NCBI GenBank assembly: GCA_963668025.2
Contig: CAXXTH010000012.1
Span: forward strand, 32,001-96,000
Reading direction: 5' to 3'
DNA: 64,000 nt
Source: Candidatus Hydrogenedentota bacterium
GTDB taxonomy: Bacteria; Hydrogenedentota; Hydrogenedentia; Hydrogenedentales; SLHB01
The notes beneath the pieces are model-generated. The model saw nothing but the letters and a program-made list of their open reading frames with translations. It was not told where the DNA came from and searched no databases. The position numbers and the translations under genes are program-made. Every line of letters begins with the position of its first letter. Position 1 is the stretch's first letter. Shown here in pieces: positions 26,317 to 34,065 of this stretch.

Positions 26317-26616
26317 ATGGAGTTGCCGATTCGGATTGATAAAAGCCAGATAGCGGTATTTTGCAAAAAGCACCATATAACGAAGCTGGCGCTTTTCGGG
26401 TCCGTCTTGACCGAGCATTTCACCGAGGAAAGCGACGTGGATGTGCTGGTGGAATTTGAGCCGGAGCATATCCCGGGCCTGATCCGGCTCTGTGGCATGG
26501 AGCGCGAGCTTTCCGGCATTCTCGGGAGGAAAGCGGACATGCGCACGCCTGGCGATCTAAGCCGGTATTTCCGCGATGAAGTCATCAACTCCGCCGTGGT
26601 GCAATATGCTGCTTGA
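26317..26616 (+). CDS. Minimal nucleotidyltransferase (MntA-type antitoxin)
   Basis: GS-X10-DXD motif (GSVLTEHFTEESDVD); strong GGAGG RBS. Confidence 0.92.
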   Translation: MELPIRIDKSQIAVFCKKHHITKLALFGSVLTEHFTEESDVDVLVEFEPEHIPGLIRLCGMERELSGILGRKADMRTPGDLSRYFRDEVINSAVVQYAA

Positions 26617-26947
26617 CGGTGATCAGGTGAGGCTGAAACACATACTTGATGCCCTTCAAGAAGCTGTAGATTATGTAATGGATGTTGAGTGGACCGAGTT
26701 CGCAGCCAAACGGCCATTACAGCATTCGGTGGTGCGCTGCATTGAAATTGTGGGTGAGGCATCCAGCCGATTATCGAAGGAACTACGAGAATCAAATCCA
26801 CAAATTCCATGGGTGGATATGATTGGCATGCGCAATCGCATTGTACACGCCTATTATGAAATTGATATTGATATTATATGGAAAACAGCGAAAGAAGATT
26901 TACCGAATTTGTTGCCAAAGATAAAGGCTGCCACTCAAAAGCCGTGA
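26606..26947 (+). CDS. HEPN/DUF86 (HepT-type) RNase toxin
   Basis: IEIVGEA, IPW..MIGMRNRIVH.Y (RX4H); overlaps the MNT stop. Confidence 0.92.
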   Translation: MLLDGDQVRLKHILDALQEAVDYVMDVEWTEFAAKRPLQHSVVRCIEIVGEASSRLSKELRESNPQIPWVDMIGMRNRIVHAYYEIDIDIIWKTAKEDLPNLLPKIKAATQKP

Positions 26948-26976
26948 TCTTCAGAATAGATAATATATGCGTTTTC

Positions 26977-27006
26977 ATTCGTGTAAATTGGTGTCCATTC
27001 GTGGTT
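26977..27006. repeat. 9-nt-period repeat (right-arm type, ends gtggtt)
   Basis: attcgtgtaaattggtgtccattcgtggtt, immediately after the TA pair. Confidence 0.65.
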
Positions 27007-27037
27007 CAACTGAATGCTCGATAAGTAGGGGCGTTAC

Positions 27038-27625
27038 ATGGCTTCAACTCCCAAATCTCGATGCGGATGGCCGGGCGATGACCCGTTGATGCGAGCGTAT
27101 CATGACGCGGAGTGGGGCGCGCCACAGCATGACGACCGGGTGTTGTTCGAGTTCGTGACGCTCGAGAGCGCCCAAGCGGGATTGAACTGGAAGACCATCT
27201 TGAACAAGCGTGAGGGCTACCGCCAGGCGTTCGCGGGATTCGACCCGGCGGCTGTGGCGCGGTTCACGGAATGCGACCAGGCACGGCTTCTGGCCGATGC
27301 GGGCATCGTCCGAAACCGCCTCAAGATAGCGGCGGCCATCACCAACGCCCAGGCGTTTCTGGCGATACAGGAGGCCTTCGGCAGTTTCGACGCCTACAGT
27401 TGGCGTTTCGTGGAGGGCGCGCCCATTCAGAACCATTGGCGCACGCTGGCCGAGATTCCAGCCCGTTCCGCCGAGTCAGACGCCATGAGCAAGGATATGA
27501 AGCAGCGCGGCATCAAGTTTTTTGGCACTACCATCTGTTACGCCCACATGCAGGCGGTGGGCATGATGAATGATCATATAATGGATTGTTTCCGGTGGCG
27601 GGAAGTGCAAGCGGTAGGCAAGTGA
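27038..27625 (+). CDS. tag: DNA-3-methyladenine glycosylase I
   Basis: RCGW, YHD.EWG, LE.AQAGL.W.TIL.KR, IVRNRLKI, G.TICYA.MQAVG..NDH...CF. Confidence 0.96.
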   Translation: MASTPKSRCGWPGDDPLMRAYHDAEWGAPQHDDRVLFEFVTLESAQAGLNWKTILNKREGYRQAFAGFDPAAVARFTECDQARLLADAGIVRNRLKIAAAITNAQAFLAIQEAFGSFDAYSWRFVEGAPIQNHWRTLAEIPARSAESDAMSKDMKQRGIKFFGTTICYAHMQAVGMMNDHIMDCFRWREVQAVGK

Positions 27626-27640
27626 ATGGGAGACAAAGTC

Positions 27641-27943
27641 ATGCATACGCGGGAATCAGCGCTGCGGGTTCTGCGTGAGAGCTTGCCGGAATTGAGGAAA
27701 GCTTATGGCGTGCGCCGTTTGGCTTTGTTCGGATCCGTCGCGCGGGATGCTGCACGAGAGGAAAGCGATGTCGATGTGCTGGCCGAATTTGACCGGCCCA
27801 TTGGTTTCCTTTTTGTCGATTTTGCGGAGCATCTTGAACATATACTGGGCGCGAAAGCGGATGTGCTGACGCCCGATGGCGTGGCCGCGATTCACAATCC
27901 TGAGATTGCCACACGTATTCTGGAATCAGCCATCGATGTCTAA
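27641..27943 (+). CDS. Minimal nucleotidyltransferase (MntA-type antitoxin)
   Basis: YGV.RLALFGSVARD.....SDVDVL.EF; start could instead be 27626. Confidence 0.9.
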   Translation: MHTRESALRVLRESLPELRKAYGVRRLALFGSVARDAAREESDVDVLAEFDRPIGFLFVDFAEHLEHILGAKADVLTPDGVAAIHNPEIATRILESAIDV

Positions 27944-28289
27944 ACGTTCGGATAAGGAACTCATTGATGACATGCTTAATGCGTTGAGCCGTATGGAGGC
28001 ATACTGCGCGGAGATGGATTATGCAAGCTTCTTAGAGGATAACAAGACGCAAGACGCGGTGATACGAAATGTGGAGATCCTAGGTGAAGCGGCCAAACTG
28101 GTTTCCGAGGATTTGCGACAAGCCTACCAGGAAATACCATGGCGCAGTATAGCGGGCACACGCGATCGACTTATTCACCATTACTTTGGTGTGAACTGGG
28201 AGATCGTATGGAACATAGTCAAGAATGATAGTCCGATTTTGATTGACAAACTGAACCAAGTTCGATTTAACCAAAAGAGAAACTGTTGA
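27936..28289 (+). CDS. HEPN/DUF86 (HepT-type) RNase toxin
   Basis: TQDAVIRN.EILGEAAK, IPWR.IAG.RDRLIHHYFGV (RX4H). Confidence 0.92.
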   Translation: MSKRSDKELIDDMLNALSRMEAYCAEMDYASFLEDNKTQDAVIRNVEILGEAAKLVSEDLRQAYQEIPWRSIAGTRDRLIHHYFGVNWEIVWNIVKNDSPILIDKLNQVRFNQKRNC

Positions 28290-28322: not shown

Positions 28323-29732
28323 ATGCCGAAGAACATCTATGAAAAAATCTGGGACGCGCATTTGGTGCATGAAGAAGCGGGGCAGTCGCCCATTCTCTAC
28401 ATCGACCGGCAGTATGTCCATGAAGTGACCTCGGCGCAGGCTTTCGATGGATTGCGCCTGTCGGGGCGCAAAGTCCGGCGGCCCGAATTGACCTTCGCCA
28501 CCATGGACCACAATATCCCGACGACCGGGCGCGGCAAGCCCATCGCTGACGCCCTGTCGCGCCAGCAGGTCGAGACGCTCTCGAAGAACTGCGCGGAATT
28601 CGGCGTCGCGTGCTTCGGCATGGATCATCCCTTGAACGGCATCGTCCACGTCATCGGCCCTGAACTGGGCCTAACCCGCCCCGGCATGACCATCGTCTGC
28701 GGCGATTCCCACACGGCCACCCATGGCGCGCTGGGCGCGCTGGCCTTCGGCATCGGCACGAGCGAAGTCGAGCACGTCCTGGCGACACAGACCCTTTTAC
28801 AGAAGAAATCGAAGACCATGGAAGTGCGCGTCACGGGCGCCCTCAAGCCGGGCATCACGGCGAAAGACGTTATCCTGGCCATCATCGGCATCATCGGCAC
28901 GGACGGCGGTACGGGCTACGTCATCGAGTTCACGGGCGACGCCATCCGCGGCTTGAGCATGGAAGGCCGCATGACGGTGTCGAACATGACCATCGAGGCG
29001 GGGGCGCGCGCGGGGCTGATCTCGCCCGACGACACGACCATCGAATACTTGAAAGGCCGCGAGTATCTGCCGAAAGACCAGCCGTGGAACGCCCTCGCGG
29101 CAGGATGGAAGAGCTGGGCCTCGGACCCCGGCTGCGCGTACGACAAGGTGGTCGTGCTCGACGGCGCGTCCATCGAGCCGCAAGTCACGTGGGGCACCTC
29201 GCCGGGCATGGTCACGAGCATTACGAGTAAAACGCCCGTGCTGGCGGACATCGCCGATGCGGATAAGCGCGATTCGGCAGCAAAAGCCCTCGCATACATG
29301 GGCTTGGGCGAAGGCGTACCCATGATGGATATCGCCGTCGACAAGGTGTTCATCGGCTCCTGCACGAATGGACGCATTGAAGACCTGCGCGAAGCCGCGA
29401 AATTCGCCAAGGGCCATAAGGTCCACGCGAATATCCGCCAAGCGCTGATCGTCCCCGGCTCGAACAAGGTCAAACAGCAGGCGGAGGCCGAAGGCTTGGA
29501 CAAGATTTTCATCGAAGCGGGATTCGAGTGGCGGGAAGCGGGCTGTTCCATGTGCCTGGCCATGAACGACGACCGGCTCGATCCCGGCGACCGCTGCGCC
29601 GCCACGTCGAACCGGAACTTTGAAGGCCGGCAAGGCAAAGGCGGCCGCACGCACCTCGTCAGCCCCGCCATGGCGGCGGCGGCGGCGGTGGTCGGCCACT
29701 TCGTGGATATCCGTAATTGGAAATGTGATTAA
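28323..29732 (+). CDS. leuC: 3-isopropylmalate dehydratase large subunit
   Basis: [50 protein letters not shown]. Confidence 0.98.
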
Positions 29733-29753
29733 CTGTATAAAAAACGCTCTCAT

Positions 29754-29819
29754 CGTCATTCCCGCGCAGGCGGGAATCCAGGGCTACTCGCATGGGGCCA
29801 TGCTTTCGCGGGAATGACG
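29754..29819. repeat. CGTC-tagged palindromic repeat, copy 1
   Basis: cgtcattcccgcgcaggcgggaatcca...gggaatgacg; second copy at 30062-30127. Confidence 0.85.
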
Positions 29820-29833
29820 GTGGAGAGCAATAG

Positions 29834-29989
29834 ACGCAGAGGCGCGGAGTACGCGGAGAGGACATAAAGTACAGAACAATAGCCACAAAATCCACAAGAG
29901 GCATCAAATGCTTCTTGAACACCAGATAGGAAGGATGAGAACCCGTAGCATGGGCGTCCCGCCCATACGCATGGCCGGGACGGCCATGG
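29834..29989. repeat. Cluster of 9-nt-period repeats and a GTAG REP
   Basis: acgcagaggcgcggagtacgcggagag; agccacaaaatccacaagaggca; gtagcatgggcgtcccgcccat...catggccgggacggccatg. Confidence 0.7.
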
Positions 29990-30135
29990 TGGCGGCGGTT
30001 GGACACTTCGTGAATATCCAGGACTGAAAATGCAATTTACGGCATAAAAAACGGCCTCAACCGTCATTCCCGCGCAGGCGGGAATCCAGGGCGATTTACA
30101 CGAAGCCATGTTTTCATGGGAATGACGGTGGAGAG
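29982..30135 (+). pseudogene. Decayed duplicate of leuC 3' end plus downstream palindrome
   Basis: Translates AMVAAVGHFVNIQD*KCN versus LeuC ...[16 protein letters not shown]; nucleotide similarity to ~29666-29827 continues through the CGTC repeat to gtggagag. Confidence 0.85.
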
Positions 30136-30228
30136 TATCATACGCAAGGCGAGGAAAAGGCAACAGATGAAGTCAGAAGTAGGGACGGTATTGTGAGACA
30201 CATTGGATAATGCATGGAGTAGTTTGAA

Positions 30229-31047
30229 ATGCCAGCGATAACGGATCATCCTTGTTTTCCGCAGCCTGAGGATGCTGACACCAAAATCTGGCGTTACATG
30301 GATTTACCAAAATTGCTTTGGATGCTGGAAGAGAATGCTCTCTACTTTTGCAGAGTGGATTTACTAGAAGATACGTTTGAGGGTACAAGGACTCCGTCTA
30401 CTGAGCCCTTGATTAACGAAGATAGGTGTCCTGATCTCCTGAAGCAATTTTTTCGAGAAGAAAGAAAAGCTAGACGTTCTTTGGTTTTTGTGAACTGTTG
30501 GTACTTTGGTGATCACGAATCTGTTGCTATGTGGAAGATATACGGGAAAGAGAATAAGTCAATCGCTGTGCAGTCAACTTATCGTTCCTTATTTGAACAG
30601 TTAAATCTAGTTCGATTTCTAGAAAACGAAGAATTAGTTCACGACTGTTTCTTAGGGCTTGTCTCATATATTGACTATACTAAGGAGAGTCTGGGTCGCC
30701 CTCAGAATTTGCTCTCTCCATTCATGCATAAGAGAGAGTCATTTGCCTTTGAAAAGGAAGTGCGTGCATTGGTCGATTCAGAATTCATCAAGAATCTTGG
30801 TGATTATTGTGCGAAGAAATCAGATAGGCAAAAAGAAGCGAGGCGTATTCGTGATCTGTATGCCAGGCATGTGAAAGAGTGCTCAGGAATCACTGTTCCC
30901 GTTGATCTATCTGCGCTTATCGAAAGCATTTACGTTGCACCCAAAGCAGAGCTGTGGTTTGTGGAACTCGTAGAGAAAGTAATACGGCGATATGGACTCA
31001 ATGTGCCGGTGAAGCATTCGTCTTTGGATGCCGATCCACTATACTAA
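30229..31047 (+). CDS. DUF2971-like protein, AT-richer than flanks
   Basis: IWRYMD..K...L....LYF.R.D...D.FEG, VNCW....ES.AMWK.Y, KR..F.FEKEVR, LIE.IY.AP. Confidence 0.75.
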   Translation: MPAITDHPCFPQPEDADTKIWRYMDLPKLLWMLEENALYFCRVDLLEDTFEGTRTPSTEPLINEDRCPDLLKQFFREERKARRSLVFVNCWYFGDHESVAMWKIYGKENKSIAVQSTYRSLFEQLNLVRFLENEELVHDCFLGLVSYIDYTKESLGRPQNLLSPFMHKRESFAFEKEVRALVDSEFIKNLGDYCAKKSDRQKEARRIRDLYARHVKECSGITVPVDLSALIESIYVAPKAELWFVELVEKVIRRYGLNVPVKHSSLDADPLY

Positions 31048-31075
31048 GATGTCTCTGATTAGGGATGAAAACGTC

Positions 31076-31153
31076 ACATAGTGGCTGTTGTGCTCGTTGT
31101 GGTTGAATATGGTCAAATATAAATAAACCACAACGGACACGACGAACACGAGG
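31076..31153. repeat. Hairpin-forming repeat, left copy
   Basis: acatagtggctgttgtgctcgttgtggttga...aaaccacaacggacac; direct repeat of 32250-32305. Confidence 0.8.
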
Positions 31154-31196
31154 ATCACCTAGGTAAGGTGATTCTTACGCTAGAAGGGTACGGCCC

Positions 31197-31511
31197 ATGA
31201 CGCGCGAAGAGTTATTGCTTGCCGTGAAGGAGGCCGTGCAGGCGGTGTCGCCTGGCGCGTCGGTGATCCTGTTCGGCTCGCGCGCACGGGGCGACGCCCA
31301 GCCGGATTCGGATTGGGATTTTCTGGTGCTGACCGATGAACCACTAGGCTGGAGGAAAGAAAGAGAACTCCTGCGCGGTATGTGGCGTGTGGAATGGCAA
31401 TGCGGTGAAGTGCTTAATCCTATTGTCCATTCACGTGCGGAATGGCAGTCGCCCATACGTGAAGGCTCTCCATTCCTGCAGGCCGTGAACCGGGAAGGGA
31501 TTCCCGTATGA
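31197..31511 (+). CDS. Minimal nucleotidyltransferase
   Basis: LFGSRARGDAQPDSDWD; C-terminal SPF...V.REGI.V. Confidence 0.92.
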   Translation: MTREELLLAVKEAVQAVSPGASVILFGSRARGDAQPDSDWDFLVLTDEPLGWRKERELLRGMWRVEWQCGEVLNPIVHSRAEWQSPIREGSPFLQAVNREGIPV

Positions 31512-31906
31512 ACGATTCTACACAGGAGATTGTCCTGTTTCGCCTTCGAGCGGCGCGGGAAACGCTGGTAGAAGCTCGCGCCATGTTGGACGGAGGGCAT
31601 CCCCGCGGATGCATTAACCGGCTCTATTATGCATGCTTTTACGCCGTGAGCGCATTGTTATTGGCAAAAGGGCTTTCCTCCTCCAAGCATACGGGGGTTC
31701 GCGCCTTTTTTAATAAAGAGTTCATCCATACCGGTGTGTTTTCTGCTTCTATTGGAGACACATACAACACGTTGTTTGTAAAACGTATGAGTAGCGATTA
31801 TGAAGATTTTTTCACGCCTAATAGCCAGGAAGTATCTGAGTTGTTCTCAGAAGCCGGGCAGCTTGTAGATACGATAGACGGATATTTGCAGCGAAACACG
31901 GAGTAA
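31508..31906 (+). CDS. HEPN domain protein (RLYYACF / R-x4-Y type)
   Basis: NRLYYACFYA..ALL, KH.GV...F...FI, KRMSSDY; ATGA overlap with MNT. Confidence 0.9.
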   Translation: MNDSTQEIVLFRLRAARETLVEARAMLDGGHPRGCINRLYYACFYAVSALLLAKGLSSSKHTGVRAFFNKEFIHTGVFSASIGDTYNTLFVKRMSSDYEDFFTPNSQEVSELFSEAGQLVDTIDGYLQRNTE

Positions 31907-31911
31907 TTCCA

Positions 31912-32226
31912 ATGACGCGCGAGGAGTTGTTACAAGCCGTGAAGGAAGCCGTGCAGGCGGCGGCGCCGGACGCGTCGGTGATCCTATTCGGTTCGCGCGC
32001 ACGGGGCGACGCCCAGCCGGACTCGGATTGGGATTTTCTGGTATTGACCGATGAGCCGCTGAGCGAAGCATCGCAGGAAAGTGTGAACCGGCGTATATGG
32101 GAATTGGGTTGGGACGAAGGATTGACACTATCCACCCTGTTCTATACCCGTTCTCAATGGCAGGAACCTCGGCGGCGGGCCGCAGGATTCCACCGCGCCG
32201 TGGAACGCGAGGGAATCTTGTTATGA
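31912..32226 (+). CDS. Minimal nucleotidyltransferase, orphan paralog
   Basis: First 50 aa nearly identical to 31197-31511, second half divergent; no intact HEPN follows. Confidence 0.9.
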   Translation: MTREELLQAVKEAVQAAAPDASVILFGSRARGDAQPDSDWDFLVLTDEPLSEASQESVNRRIWELGWDEGLTLSTLFYTRSQWQEPRRRAAGFHRAVEREGILL

Positions 32227-32249
32227 TGGAAGGTTCAGTTGATAATCGG

Positions 32250-32346
32250 ACATAGTGGTTATTGTGCTCGTCGTGGTTGAGTCTCAACAAACCACAACGG
32301 ACACAATGTTGGCGTTTTTTCGTGTATTTGGTGTATTTCGTGGTTC
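32250..32346. repeat. Hairpin-forming repeat, right copy, plus 9-nt-period arm
   Basis: acatagtggttattgtgctcgtcgtggttga...aaaccacaacggacac, then ttcgtgtatttggtgtatttcgtggtt. Confidence 0.8.
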
Positions 32347-32385
32347 GTATTTTTGAGGACAAACGCCAAACATAGGAGTGAGCCC

Positions 32386-32661
32386 ATGGGATGCTGTTTT
32401 GGATTGTTGCTGGCGGCGGGGATTCCGCGCATCGCGTTGATTCTGGTGTGGCTGTCGGGAAAGAGCGCGTCTCTCTTTGATACGCGCCTGTGGCCGTTGC
32501 TCGGGTTCTTCTTCCTGCCCTACACCACGTGCGGCTATTGTATCGCGGAATATTACTTTAAAGGCCCCTCGGCGGGCTGGGGCCTTGCGGTGGTGATCAT
32601 CGGCGTGCTACTCGATTTGGGCAGCCACGGCGGCGGCGCACGGCAAATGCAGCGGCGATGA
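32386..32661 (+). CDS. Small membrane protein
   Basis: AGGAG RBS; PR.AL...WL, WPLLGFFFLPYTT..Y, GVLLDLG; about 3 TM segments. Confidence 0.8.
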   Translation: MGCCFGLLLAAGIPRIALILVWLSGKSASLFDTRLWPLLGFFFLPYTTCGYCIAEYYFKGPSAGWGLAVVIIGVLLDLGSHGGGARQMQRR

Positions 32662-32667
32662 TGAATG

Positions 32668-32916
32668 TATTTTTAACACAAAGGCACAAAGACACAAGGA
32701 GGTCTCTCACCGCTTGTAGTTTGCCCATAATTCTTTGTGCCTTAGTGTCTTTGTGTTGAGTTTTTAATGAGTACAAAATCGCGAAAGCGTTGTCGAATAG
32801 ATCGTGATGTTCTAACAAAGAGAAGAAAACACATGGAATCCTTCAAGACGTTGACTAGCGTTGTGGAGCCGCTGGACCGGATGGATGTGGATACGGACCA
32901 GTCTAGAACGGAATGA
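32668..32916 (+). pseudogene. Duplicate of leuD upstream region and first 23 codons
   Basis: Direct repeat of ~33302-33537; mini-ORF 32833-32916 MESFKTLTSVVEPLDRMDVDTDQSRTE* versus Leu[24 protein letters not shown]. Confidence 0.9.
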
Positions 32917-32932
32917 TTGGAGGTGAAGAGAT

Positions 32933-33241
32933 ATGCGCGAAGTACGCTATGTTGCTAAGAATAATCGCATTCTTGTCATTTCCTTGGCATTTACATTCTG
33001 CTGGATGATTTATGCCATGTCCACCTTTTATACAGCTAAGATGGTTTGGATTTTACCCGGATTAGGCTTTATCCTAAGCGGTTTTGTTTTGTGCGGAGTA
33101 AGTGTATTGGCGGACTTGAGGCTGTTTTTTGAAAGAGAAGTAAAACTAAAAACCAGGCTGCTAGTCGGAAGCGTATGCCTTTTGGTGGTTTTATATTCTT
33201 GTTATGCTTTTCTTTCTGTGCTTAGGCAGCCAACGTTTTGA
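32933..33241 (+). CDS. Hypothetical 3-TM membrane protein, AT-rich
   Basis: GGAGGT RBS; three hydrophobic segments; sits between the two leuD 5' copies. Confidence 0.7.
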   Translation: MREVRYVAKNNRILVISLAFTFCWMIYAMSTFYTAKMVWILPGLGFILSGFVLCGVSVLADLRLFFEREVKLKTRLLVGSVCLLVVLYSCYAFLSVLRQPTF

Positions 33242-33308
33242 TAAGGATTATGCGGAAATATACAACCGACAACGCCGGGAAGATAGGTTTACTTAGACGT
33301 TTATTTTT

Positions 33309-33392
33309 TAACACAAAGGCACAAAGACACAAGGAGGTCTCTCGCCGCTTGTGGTTTGGCCTTAATTCTTTGTGTCTTAGTATCTTTGTGTT
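33309..33392. repeat. Inverted pair of 9-nt-period repeats upstream of leuD
   Basis: aacacaaaggcacaaagacacaag...ctttgtgtcttagtatctttgtgtt; also at 32675-32757. Confidence 0.8.
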
Positions 33393-33468
33393 GGAATTTT
33401 TGTAAGTAAAAATCGCAGAAACGTTATCGAATAGATCGTAATGGCCCATAACAAGGAGAAGAAAACAC

Positions 33469-34065
33469 ATGGAACCCTTCAAGACGTTGACTGGCGTTGT
33501 GGCGCCGCTGGACCGGATGAATGTGGATACGGACCAGATTATCCCGAAGCAATTCCTGAAGCGCATCGAGCGGACCGGATACGAGGATTGCTTGTTTTAC
33601 GACTGGCGGTTTCTCGAGGACGGCAAGACGCCGGATCCGGATTTCGAGCCCAACGCCGCGCGTTATGCGGGCGCGTCCATCTTGCTGGCGCGCGACAACT
33701 TCGGCTGCGGCTCGTCGCGCGAGCACGCCCCCTGGGCGCTGCATGACTATGGCATCCGCTGCATCCTTGCGCCGTCCTATGCCGATATCTTCTACAACAA
33801 CTGCTTCAACAACGGCATGCTGCCCCTGCGGCTGCCGAACGCGGTGATCGACGTGCTCTTCCCGGAAGTGCGCGCCACGGAAGGCTATTCGCTCGTGATT
33901 GACTTGCCCGCGCAAACGATCACGAAGCCCAACGGCGACGCCATTTCCTTCGAGTTGGATCCGTTCCTGAAGGAACGCCTGCTGAATGGCTGGGATCAGA
34001 TCGGCCTGACCTTGCGCCACGAAAGCAAGATCGCCGCTTACGAAAAAGCGCACGGCGTGGCATAA
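33469..34065 (+). CDS. leuD: 3-isopropylmalate dehydratase small subunit
   Basis: [51 protein letters not shown]. Confidence 0.98.

Follow-up and report, generated by a model that had tools for sequence, protein, structure and literature searches.

The DNA studied here is a window of 64,000 nucleotides (nt), positions 32001-96000 of contig C12 of genome G000, a metagenome-assembled genome (MAG) of Candidatus Hydrogenedentota that comprises 6.1 Mb in 24 contigs and is 93.75% complete. Within it leuC and leuD, the genes for the two subunits of 3-isopropylmalate dehydratase, were found to be separated by 3.7 kb, with each gene scoring above its NCBIfam equivalog cut-off (Table 1). Read from leuC to leuD, the interval contains a remnant of the leuC 3' end, a DUF2971-like gene, two genes for minimal nucleotidyltransferases (MNT1 and MNT2) with a HEPN-domain gene between them, a gene for a 91-aa membrane protein, a fragment consisting of the leuD leader and 23 codons, and a 102-aa membrane open reading frame (ORF), and all of the genes are on the plus strand, as are leuC and leuD themselves. 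A preliminary description had taken the interval for a cassette-like site of gene capture, and we have compared it with the same interval across an order of Candidatus Hydrogenedentota.

Table 1. Features of the leuC-leuD interval (positions in the window) and other repeat-bracketed inserts of the genome (positions in contigs). REP, repetitive extragenic palindrome; hp, hairpin.
Feature	Position	Strand	Basis and remarks
leuC, 3-isopropylmalate dehydratase large subunit, intact	28323..29732	+	Pfam Aconitase E 2.8e-177; NCBIfam TIGR00170 774.6 bits (cut-off 560)
leuC-end duplication copy 1: final 66 nt of leuC, spacer and REP-A palindrome (hairpin 29745-29830)	29667..29838	+	DNA fold -26.2 kcal/mol, z -5.7
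Non-coding DNA, 135 nt, bracketed by leuC-end duplication; ends in REP-B palindrome 29935-29973	29839..29973	.	141 blastn matches in genome; no ORF
leuC-end duplication copy 2: leuC 3' remnant (29974-30027) and degraded REP-A copy (30053-30138)	29974..30146	+	73-79% identical to copy 1
DUF2971-like gene, matching PADLOC defence candidate PDC-S31	30229..31047	+	PADLOC PDLC04993 E 1.6e-22
Hairpin hp1, 28 nt past the DUF2971-like stop	31076..31140	+	fold z -3.2; 2 matches in genome, sole partner hp2
MNT1, minimal nucleotidyltransferase, MntA-like presumed antitoxin	31197..31511	+	Pfam NTP_transf_2; PADLOC PDC-S09
HEPN-domain protein, presumed toxin partner	31508..31906	+	Pfam HEPN E 1.2e-15; 4-nt overlap with MNT1
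MNT2, second MNT, without its own HEPN	31912..32226	+	first ~150 nt (31909-32060) 88% identical to MNT1 31194-31345; remainder 57%
Hairpin hp2 (32250-32305), then REP-C element (32314-32345)	32250..32345	+	repeat search
91-aa membrane protein, no Pfam family	32386..32661	+	AGGAG 7 nt before ATG; alignment of homologues
leuD-end duplication copy 1: REP-D hairpin 32668-32760, leuD leader, decaying codons 1-23 (32833-32901)	32668..32901	+	repeat search
102-aa AT-rich membrane ORF, cargo of leuD-end duplication	32933..33241	+	GGAGG before ATG; GC 0.40-0.43
leuD-end duplication copy 2: REP-D hairpin 33303-33397, leader, live codons 1-23 of leuD	33302..33537	+	fold z -4.7
leuD, 3-isopropylmalate dehydratase small subunit, intact	33469..34065	+	Pfam Aconitase_C; NCBIfam TIGR00171 280 bits (cut-off 116)
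Five further insert loci	C17:510849-511575 (L169); C10:207718-209309 (L170); C23:84439-85646 (L171); C14:10634-11967 (L172); C10:1360256-1362595 (L168)		lower-GC genes
Insert between flgH and flgI			flagellar cluster; cargo PD-(D/E)XK_3 gene
Insert upstream of fliQ-fliR			flagellar cluster; cargo HEAT-repeat gene
Insert upstream of short-chain dehydrogenase gene			cargo 161-aa ORF
Insert upstream of another MNT-HEPN pair			cargo ORFs of 210 and 73 aa
Insert after 2-hydroxyacid dehydrogenase gene			final ~42 codons repeated 2.2 kb downstream, past two inserted genes; REP-A 40 nt beyond

In 106 of the 133 genomes compared within the order, leuC (by its 3' end) and leuD (by its 5' end) were located on a single contig, with gaps ranging from 8 bp to 4.25 kb, the gap of the present genome being the second largest. 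The two genes lay no more than 120 bp apart in 58/106 genomes and further apart in 48/106, with more than 500 bp between them in 30/106 and more than 2 kb in 5/106, whereas the control pair trpB-trpA was separated by more than 120 bp in 4/117 genomes. The genes found in the gaps were unrelated across genera and included, by Pfam, GNAT, acyltransferase, DUF1232, DUF3500, ankyrin, ParDE, Yip1 and an endonuclease/exonuclease/phosphatase-family protein. A Pfam match was obtained for 16/28 gap ORFs on the leuCD strand and for 0/24 on the opposite strand, so that every recognisable gap insert is co-oriented with the operon. The leuC-leuD gap is a real, order-wide insertion hotspot. The preliminary description was thus right in calling it a recurrent insertion site, as its content varies across the 106 genomes, unlike that of trpB-trpA, and right that its passengers share the orientation of leuCD, which holds here and for every Pfam-recognisable gene in the gaps examined.

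Where trpB and trpA are split, the gap was of 499 bp in G002 (C65:7768-8268) and of 721 bp in G028 (C4:261323-262045), and in G002 an MNT homologue (C65:5165-5458) lies 1.5 kb past trpA. leuC and leuD were found on different contigs in G031 (C4 and C69) and G105 (C1 and C24), with leuD 9.8 kb and ~339 kb, respectively, from the contig end; the two genes may in these genomes be several kb apart or more, or unlinked.

Two of the supposed captures of this genome, the 91-aa membrane gene and the MNT-HEPN genes, turned out to occur across the lineage, in or beside the gap of 22 and 13 genomes, respectively. The membrane gene was present as a single copy in 54/133 genomes and the 22 comprised 19 in which it was strictly between leuC and leuD and 3 in which it adjoined one of them at a contig break. 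Its product, with the motifs PR...LWP.LGF...P.TTC.Y, belongs to a small-protein family without a Pfam model that is found in Hydrogenedentota, Planctomycetota, Acidobacteriota and others, and the tie of this family to leuCD was seen in Hydrogenedentota only. This distribution marks the gene as an ancestral resident of the gap.

The GS...D.D motif of the MNT (GSRARGDAQPDSDWD) is visible in the translation and the HEPN gene adjoins it; the HEPN motif, by eye, appears to be R-x4-Y (KRMSSDY), not R-x4-6-H, and appears to be kept in the copy of G010. Twelve other genomes carry homologues of MNT1, with 41-50% identity, within or next to their leuCD gap (10 strictly between the two genes, 2 at contig breaks), and with the present genome the MNT1 lineage is in or beside the gap of 13/133 genomes from five families, strictly between leuC and leuD in 11/13. 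The MNT-HEPN-MNT order recurs in G040 (L133), and in relatives the gap forms range from an orphan MNT through a single pair and MNT-HEPN-MNT to arrays of two or three pairs, with HEPN homologues following the gap MNTs; the type is rare in the present genome, which has one other such pair, 33-38% identical. Of the 15 non-self matches that score best with MNT1 in the order, 13 were in the gap. A tree of 39 MNTs placed 19 of its 21 non-gap copies in two well-supported clades, and the gap/non-gap label requires 4 changes on it, compared with 13.2 when shuffled (0/500 shuffles as low). The gap MNTs may have had a single origin, although the tree does not resolve its backbone. The predicted MNT-HEPN module is a lineage-wide resident of the gap.

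The repeat shared by the 5' halves of MNT1 and MNT2, 152 nt in length, had been listed among the duplications of the supposed capture site. In the 4/4 genomes with at least two gap copies, the first 140 nt were 80-99% identical between copies of one genome and the 3' parts 55-62%, while between genomes the first 140 nt were 60-71% identical and the 3' parts 46-58%. Because the 5' tract is alike within each genome and less so between genomes, and the 3' parts are divergent, we read this repeat as homogenisation of paralogues instead of capture, and the pattern points to concerted evolution, or to repeated recombination by way of the 5' tract.

All four direct duplications listed in the preliminary description were recovered by a repeat search near the positions claimed for them, with 73-94% identity over 65-235 nt, and their length and identity are far beyond chance. 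Beside the MNT tract they are the leuC-end repeat (29667-29752 with 29974-30059, 73%, continuing as 29739-29838 with 30047-30146, 79%), a hairpin repeat (31076-31117 with 32250-32291 and 31110-31140 with 32274-32304, 81% each) and the leuD-end repeat (32670-32777 with 33305-33412, 88%; 32775-32809 with 33409-33443, 86%; 32813-32901 with 33449-33537, 94%). The leuC remnant has decayed, with a 2-codon gap and a Trp codon that is now a stop, the degraded REP-A copy beyond it folds at just -18.8 kcal/mol, and the best match to the remnant anywhere is the leuC end of its own genome (75%). In the upstream leuD fragment 4/23 codons differ from those of the live copy, all four by nonsynonymous changes; the fragment has a weakened ribosome-binding site and is more distant from every relative than the live leuD start is. 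Since the leuD fragment is changed nonsynonymously and distant, and the leuC remnant, with its stop and indel, matches its own genome best, the gene-end repeats are decaying leftovers of local duplications which left both genes intact; the leuC-end scar would be the older of the two, as its copies diverge by ~27% and those of the leuD end by 6-12%. A foreign origin was considered for both the remnant and the fragment and rejected, as the genome's own genes match them best. The repeats do not simply bracket captured genes, as had been supposed, for the leuC-end pair encloses 132-135 nt of REP DNA without a gene. Nor is a recurrent use of gene ends as recombination sites supported, gene-end duplicates being rare in relatives (1/41 loci compared with themselves, at a blast threshold that would miss short, old remnants).

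Logan contigs of X1, the probable source run, span both odd junctions of these duplications (29755-30089 and 32679-33334) with 0 differences, the same 335-nt contig (29755-30089) is found in run X3, and pieces with 0 differences are found in X5, from another study. With independent public-run contigs crossing both junctions in this way, the duplications stood up to the suspicion of misassembly. Joints skipping 3.8-4.1 kb, the whole interval, were considered as evidence of excision and rejected, their records being of less than 95% likeness, mostly with short sides; because of that likeness they are taken for other organisms with adjacent leuCD. A contig of X4, a wastewater metagenome, at depth 2.1, runs from 32757 (where REP-D copy 1 ends) through 35 other letters to 32914 (where the AT-rich ORF starts), and may be an allele without the displaced leuD fragment, which is a lead only.

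The hairpins at the boundaries are assigned, by sequence, to four unrelated dispersed REP-like families (REP-A to REP-D) and to the pair hp1/hp2, a repeat confined to this locus. The families of the locus form strong hairpins and gave 25-141 blastn matches each; the REP-A core occurs 20 times and the REP-B core 157 times in the genome, and of 29 matches to the REP-C query (32227-32352) 27 were elsewhere. As short, dispersed, many-copy palindromes, partly in inverted doublets, they have the properties of REP/REPIN elements, and the 170-310-bp leuC-leuD gaps of relatives contain REP-like palindromes only. No match to REP-A to REP-D was present within 900 nt of six Y1 transposase loci (three single-copy genes, one IS200 copy and two fragments), by which a RAYT link was sought. 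The genome carries ~9 IS200-like Y1 transposase genes of 163 aa (C8, C6, C9, C10, C18, C21 and C24), with equal family scores in eight and a slightly lower one in the ninth, and two single-copy RAYT-like Y1 genes (C17:774393-774734 and C10:313783-314124) flanked by inverted palindromes of their own, distinct from the REP families at leuCD.

The remaining two genes of the interval are AT-rich. The DUF2971-like/PDC-S31 gene (GC 0.39-0.45, one copy in the genome, Pfam DUF2971 score under the cut-off) was probably acquired; in a donor search of metagenome contigs its closest relative was 40% identical, and 0/17 metagenome loci with relatives had these near leuC, leuD or the membrane gene. For the 102-aa membrane ORF, also present once in the genome, one relative was found, 81% identical. 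An Rfam search gave no more than two matches, both of hairpins to miRNA families, due to chance and far under the gathering scores, and promoter and terminator scans were at or below shuffle expectation (6 promoter sites, 5.0 expected). Upstream of leuC, at 26317-28289 of the window, a gene for 3-methyladenine glycosylase (tag) has an MNT/HepT pair (DUF86-type) on either side; in G031, homologues of the first of these pairs adjoin leuD or the small membrane gene, and in G040 an MNT homologue adjoins leuD. Because of these pairs and their homologues, the surroundings of leuCD can also be said to gather toxin-antitoxin genes.

Self-comparison of the genome followed by inspection, for repeats of 100-323 nt present at full length exactly twice, yielded five further repeat-bracketed inserts (Table 1), with cargo co-oriented with the gene that the repeat abuts and no recombinase domain in any of the five. 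In the flgH-flgI and MNT-HEPN inserts, a 30-45-nt part of the repeat also matches dispersed repeats. The process had been tied to leuCD, and because of these five similar inserts elsewhere in the genome it is not specific to that operon. A related case was seen in genome G092, of another genus (L130, C23:258500-262200; 1969-2613), where the leuD ribosome-binding site and 13 codons are present three times with 97-98% identity and the two displaced copies are fused directly to REP-A palindromes. The two types of leader in G092 resemble those of different sister species, which is what additive joining of two alleles predicts. The same locus contains a tandem 169-nt unit (2274-2442 and 2443-2611). 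Elsewhere in the present genome, a tyrosine-recombinase gene lies within a 5.9-kb unit (C23:358551-364435) bounded by direct repeats of 128 nt with 98% identity; the unit is likely a small integrative element and forms a contrast to leuCD.

The absence of an integrase from view, as first reported, was borne out in the window, where 0/56 ORFs scanned with Pfam carry a recombinase or transposase domain. Tyrosine recombinases (PF00589) gave 11 matches in the genome and 0 on the leuCD contig C12, and the closest Y1 transposase fragment is ~58 kb off. Ku, for end joining, was not found in the 93.75%-complete genome, and ComEC is present, a gene too widespread to argue competence.

Taking these results together, we hold it to be fairly probable that the interval between leuC and leuD has long been an insertion hotspot in the leuCD operon, with layered content, to which additions are made by recombination without a site-specific enzyme, and that it is no cassette array with a dedicated recombinase. 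The earlier reading therefore survives as to a recurrent, co-oriented, integrase-free insertion site and falls as to the cassette model, no cassette system being present and two of the supposed captures being ancestral. The oldest layer would be the residents that accompany leuCD across several families, the 91-aa membrane gene and MNT-HEPN-MNT as the remnant of an array; the AT-rich PDC-S31/DUF2971-like gene and the small AT-rich membrane ORF would form a later layer, and the REP/REPIN-like palindromes of four dispersed families, which are present at nearly every junction, a third. The MNT 5' repeat would be kept alike by recombination or gene conversion between the tandem paralogues. The leuC-3' and leuD-5' duplications would arise when DNA is added inside gene ends, leaving a complete gene on one side and a displaced fragment that decays on the other. 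Such additions by general recombination, with no site-specific enzyme, could take place by a homologous crossover in the leuC or leuD flank together with an illegitimate join, or by template switching that returns upstream of its point of departure; selection would keep those products in which both subunit genes, their signals and their orientation are intact, and the REP hairpins at several joints may serve as points of breakage or switching. A footprint of duplication could be left without a dedicated enzyme because a compact operon would tolerate only outcomes that duplicate gene ends and keep orientation.

Several points weigh against this interpretation. The counts are over genomes of one order, which are kin and hence not independent events. 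The comparison set is without a relative of the same genus or species, so that no empty site or donor allele was seen and the order of events is inferred. The mechanism of joining is likewise inferred, the crossover and template-switching routes being indistinguishable on present data and the Ku and ComEC results settling neither. Experiments on homology-facilitated illegitimate recombination have reportedly given mostly deletions, not duplications. That the differences of the leuD fragment are all nonsynonymous favours one allele in two copies, which local duplication explains at least as well as import from a diverged donor does. The leader resemblances in G092 are moderate (76% and 64-69%), the support for the assembly consists of contigs at depth 4-6 and not raw reads, and the five other inserts rest on the assembly without a read check.

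A bolder account, which we regard as unlikely though worth stating, is that Hydrogenedentota possess an undescribed route by which small genes are added into operons without integrase, transposase or attC, with a target duplication of 0.05-0.3 kb as its footprint and leuC-leuD as the most used site, and that the MNT 5' half is a recombination handle by which modules (MNT 3' half and HEPN) are swapped. If true, this would liken the interval to the orphan toxin arrays of Rhs, contact-dependent inhibition (CDI) and type VI secretion system (T6SS) loci, but inside an operon for amino-acid biosynthesis.

It is improbable, in our judgement, that the REP/REPIN elements themselves drive the rearrangement, with palindromes or fork hairpins directly causing the duplications, joints at REP ends and genes as bystanders. 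The left end of the leuD duplication is the start of REP-D, the leuC duplication ends with REP-A, both displaced leuD fragments of G092 lead directly into REP-A-type palindromes, a REP-A copy is placed 40 nt past the dehydrogenase remnant at C10:1360194, and REP-like elements fill the 170-310-bp gaps of relatives; REP elements are reported as join points of tandem duplications in Salmonella. Against this, no REP-A, B or D core lies within 150 nt of 3/5 of the other bracketed inserts, the palindromes around both RAYT-like single-copy Y1 genes are not of REP-A to REP-D, transposition of the IS200/RAYT type has no known target duplication, and plain tandem duplication leaves foreign cargo at the joint unexplained. 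To our knowledge, an association of REP elements with gene-end duplications is no part of described REPIN biology.

We think it distinctly improbable that the scars are decayed Campbell-type islands at att sites in the leuC 3' and leuD 5' ends, each with a replacement gene end, from which the integrase and most of the cargo were lost. A duplicated gene end around foreign DNA is the classical mark of integrative elements, such as e14 or phage 21 in icd, where integration into a protein gene supplies a substitute gene end; here both gene-end duplications are direct repeats derived from a target gene's end, the 3' end for leuC and the 5' end for leuD, and the element on C23 is a real integrative example in the same genome, its 128-nt repeats (98%; C23:358551-358678 and 364308-364435) enclosing the PF00589 match C23:359147-359650. 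At leuCD, however, there is no integrase or integrase fragment on the contig, and the bracketed DNA is just 132-135 nt without an ORF at the leuC end and ~400 nt with one 102-aa membrane ORF at the leuD end, with no integrase or excisionase in either. The repeats, at unrelated targets, are anywhere from 52 to 323 nt long, no junction motif common to them was seen by eye, and the G092 case contains REP DNA only.

An integron-like array, or a cluster of attC sites without its integrase, in which promoterless cassettes are captured at a fixed site via hairpins, is close to refuted. The co-oriented small genes, the toxin-antitoxin content, the hairpins between genes and the position of hp1 and hp2, each 23-28 nt past a stop codon, their ends conserved and their centre variable, would suit it. 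The reading fails because no recombinase is found in the window or on the contig, a crude pattern test of low power gave 0 candidates for attC-like R''/R' pairs, and the palindromes belong to four unrelated families that are dispersed genome-wide. One attC family (R''-L''...L'-R', core GTTRRRY) after each cassette was not observed, the junction hairpins being REP-A, B, C, D and the local pair, hence at least five unrelated sequence families, and two of the supposed cassettes are order-wide residents. Finally, strain haplotypes joined in tandem during assembly are a very improbable source of the duplications: this is a MAG of 24 contigs whose probable source run has a depth of 4-6 and whose unitigs break at REP copies with shared identical stretches, but the X1 contigs cross the joint of REP-B and leuC remnant (found also in X3 and X5) and that of leuD codon 23 and cargo, the copies are 6-27% different, as for separate loci, and depth is even across the units.

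The splitting of the two subunit genes of one essential enzyme in nearly half of the order's genomes, with both genes intact, offers a natural system for studying how operons tolerate and filter insertions, and co-orientation and the preservation of gene ends are part of that question. One toxin-antitoxin lineage that tracks the gap across five families with a homogenised tract points to recombination-driven module exchange, as described for polymorphic toxin loci; in the literature searches made, none was found for MNT-HEPN, nor any account of a leuC-leuD hotspot or of tract homogenisation in MNT-HEPN genes. That one genome has seven loci with recombinase-free, repeat-bracketed inserts points to a route of gene acquisition that standard finders of mobile elements would overlook.

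Among known systems, Campbell-type elements share with leuCD the duplicated, slightly divergent gene end around foreign DNA and the intact gene, and differ from it in that here there is no integrase, the cargo is of 0.13-2 kb, the repeat length is variable and many unrelated targets are used in one genome. The MNT-HEPN genes resemble the MntA-HepT type VII toxin-antitoxin system in their Pfam and PADLOC matches and in a small putative nucleotidyltransferase gene that overlaps a HEPN gene by 4 nt; unlike in that system, the match to the NCBIfam MntA equivalog reaches only 35 bits, far short of the cut-off of 60, the HEPN is of PF05168 type with R-x4-Y, and there is a second MNT without a partner. 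With the REP/REPIN-RAYT systems, the subject of Bertels and Rainey (2011, PMC3116915) and of Nunvar et al. (2010, PMC2817692), the genome shares dispersed extragenic palindromes, some in inverted doublets, and single-copy Y1 genes with palindromes of their own, whereas REP-A to REP-D are tied to no Y1 gene. Integration hotspots between core genes, a subject of Touchon et al. (2009, PMC2617782), are, like the present one, fixed intervals with varied accessory genes, mostly without recognisable mobile-element genes; the leuCD interval differs from them in being inside an operon between two subunits of one enzyme, in being order-wide rather than species-wide and in having all inserts co-oriented. 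Kirchberger et al. (2017, PMC5361080) describe, for loci of T6SS, Rhs and CDI, orphan toxin/immunity arrays that arise by sequential displacement, for which homology-facilitated illegitimate recombination was proposed. Those arrays share with leuC-leuD a conserved 5' homology anchor, the addition of new modules with older pieces displaced downstream, orphan gene ends and immunity genes without partners, whereas here the modules are of MNT-HEPN type in a biosynthetic operon, it is the antitoxin gene whose 5' half forms the conserved tract, and the displaced fragments include the ends of housekeeping genes.

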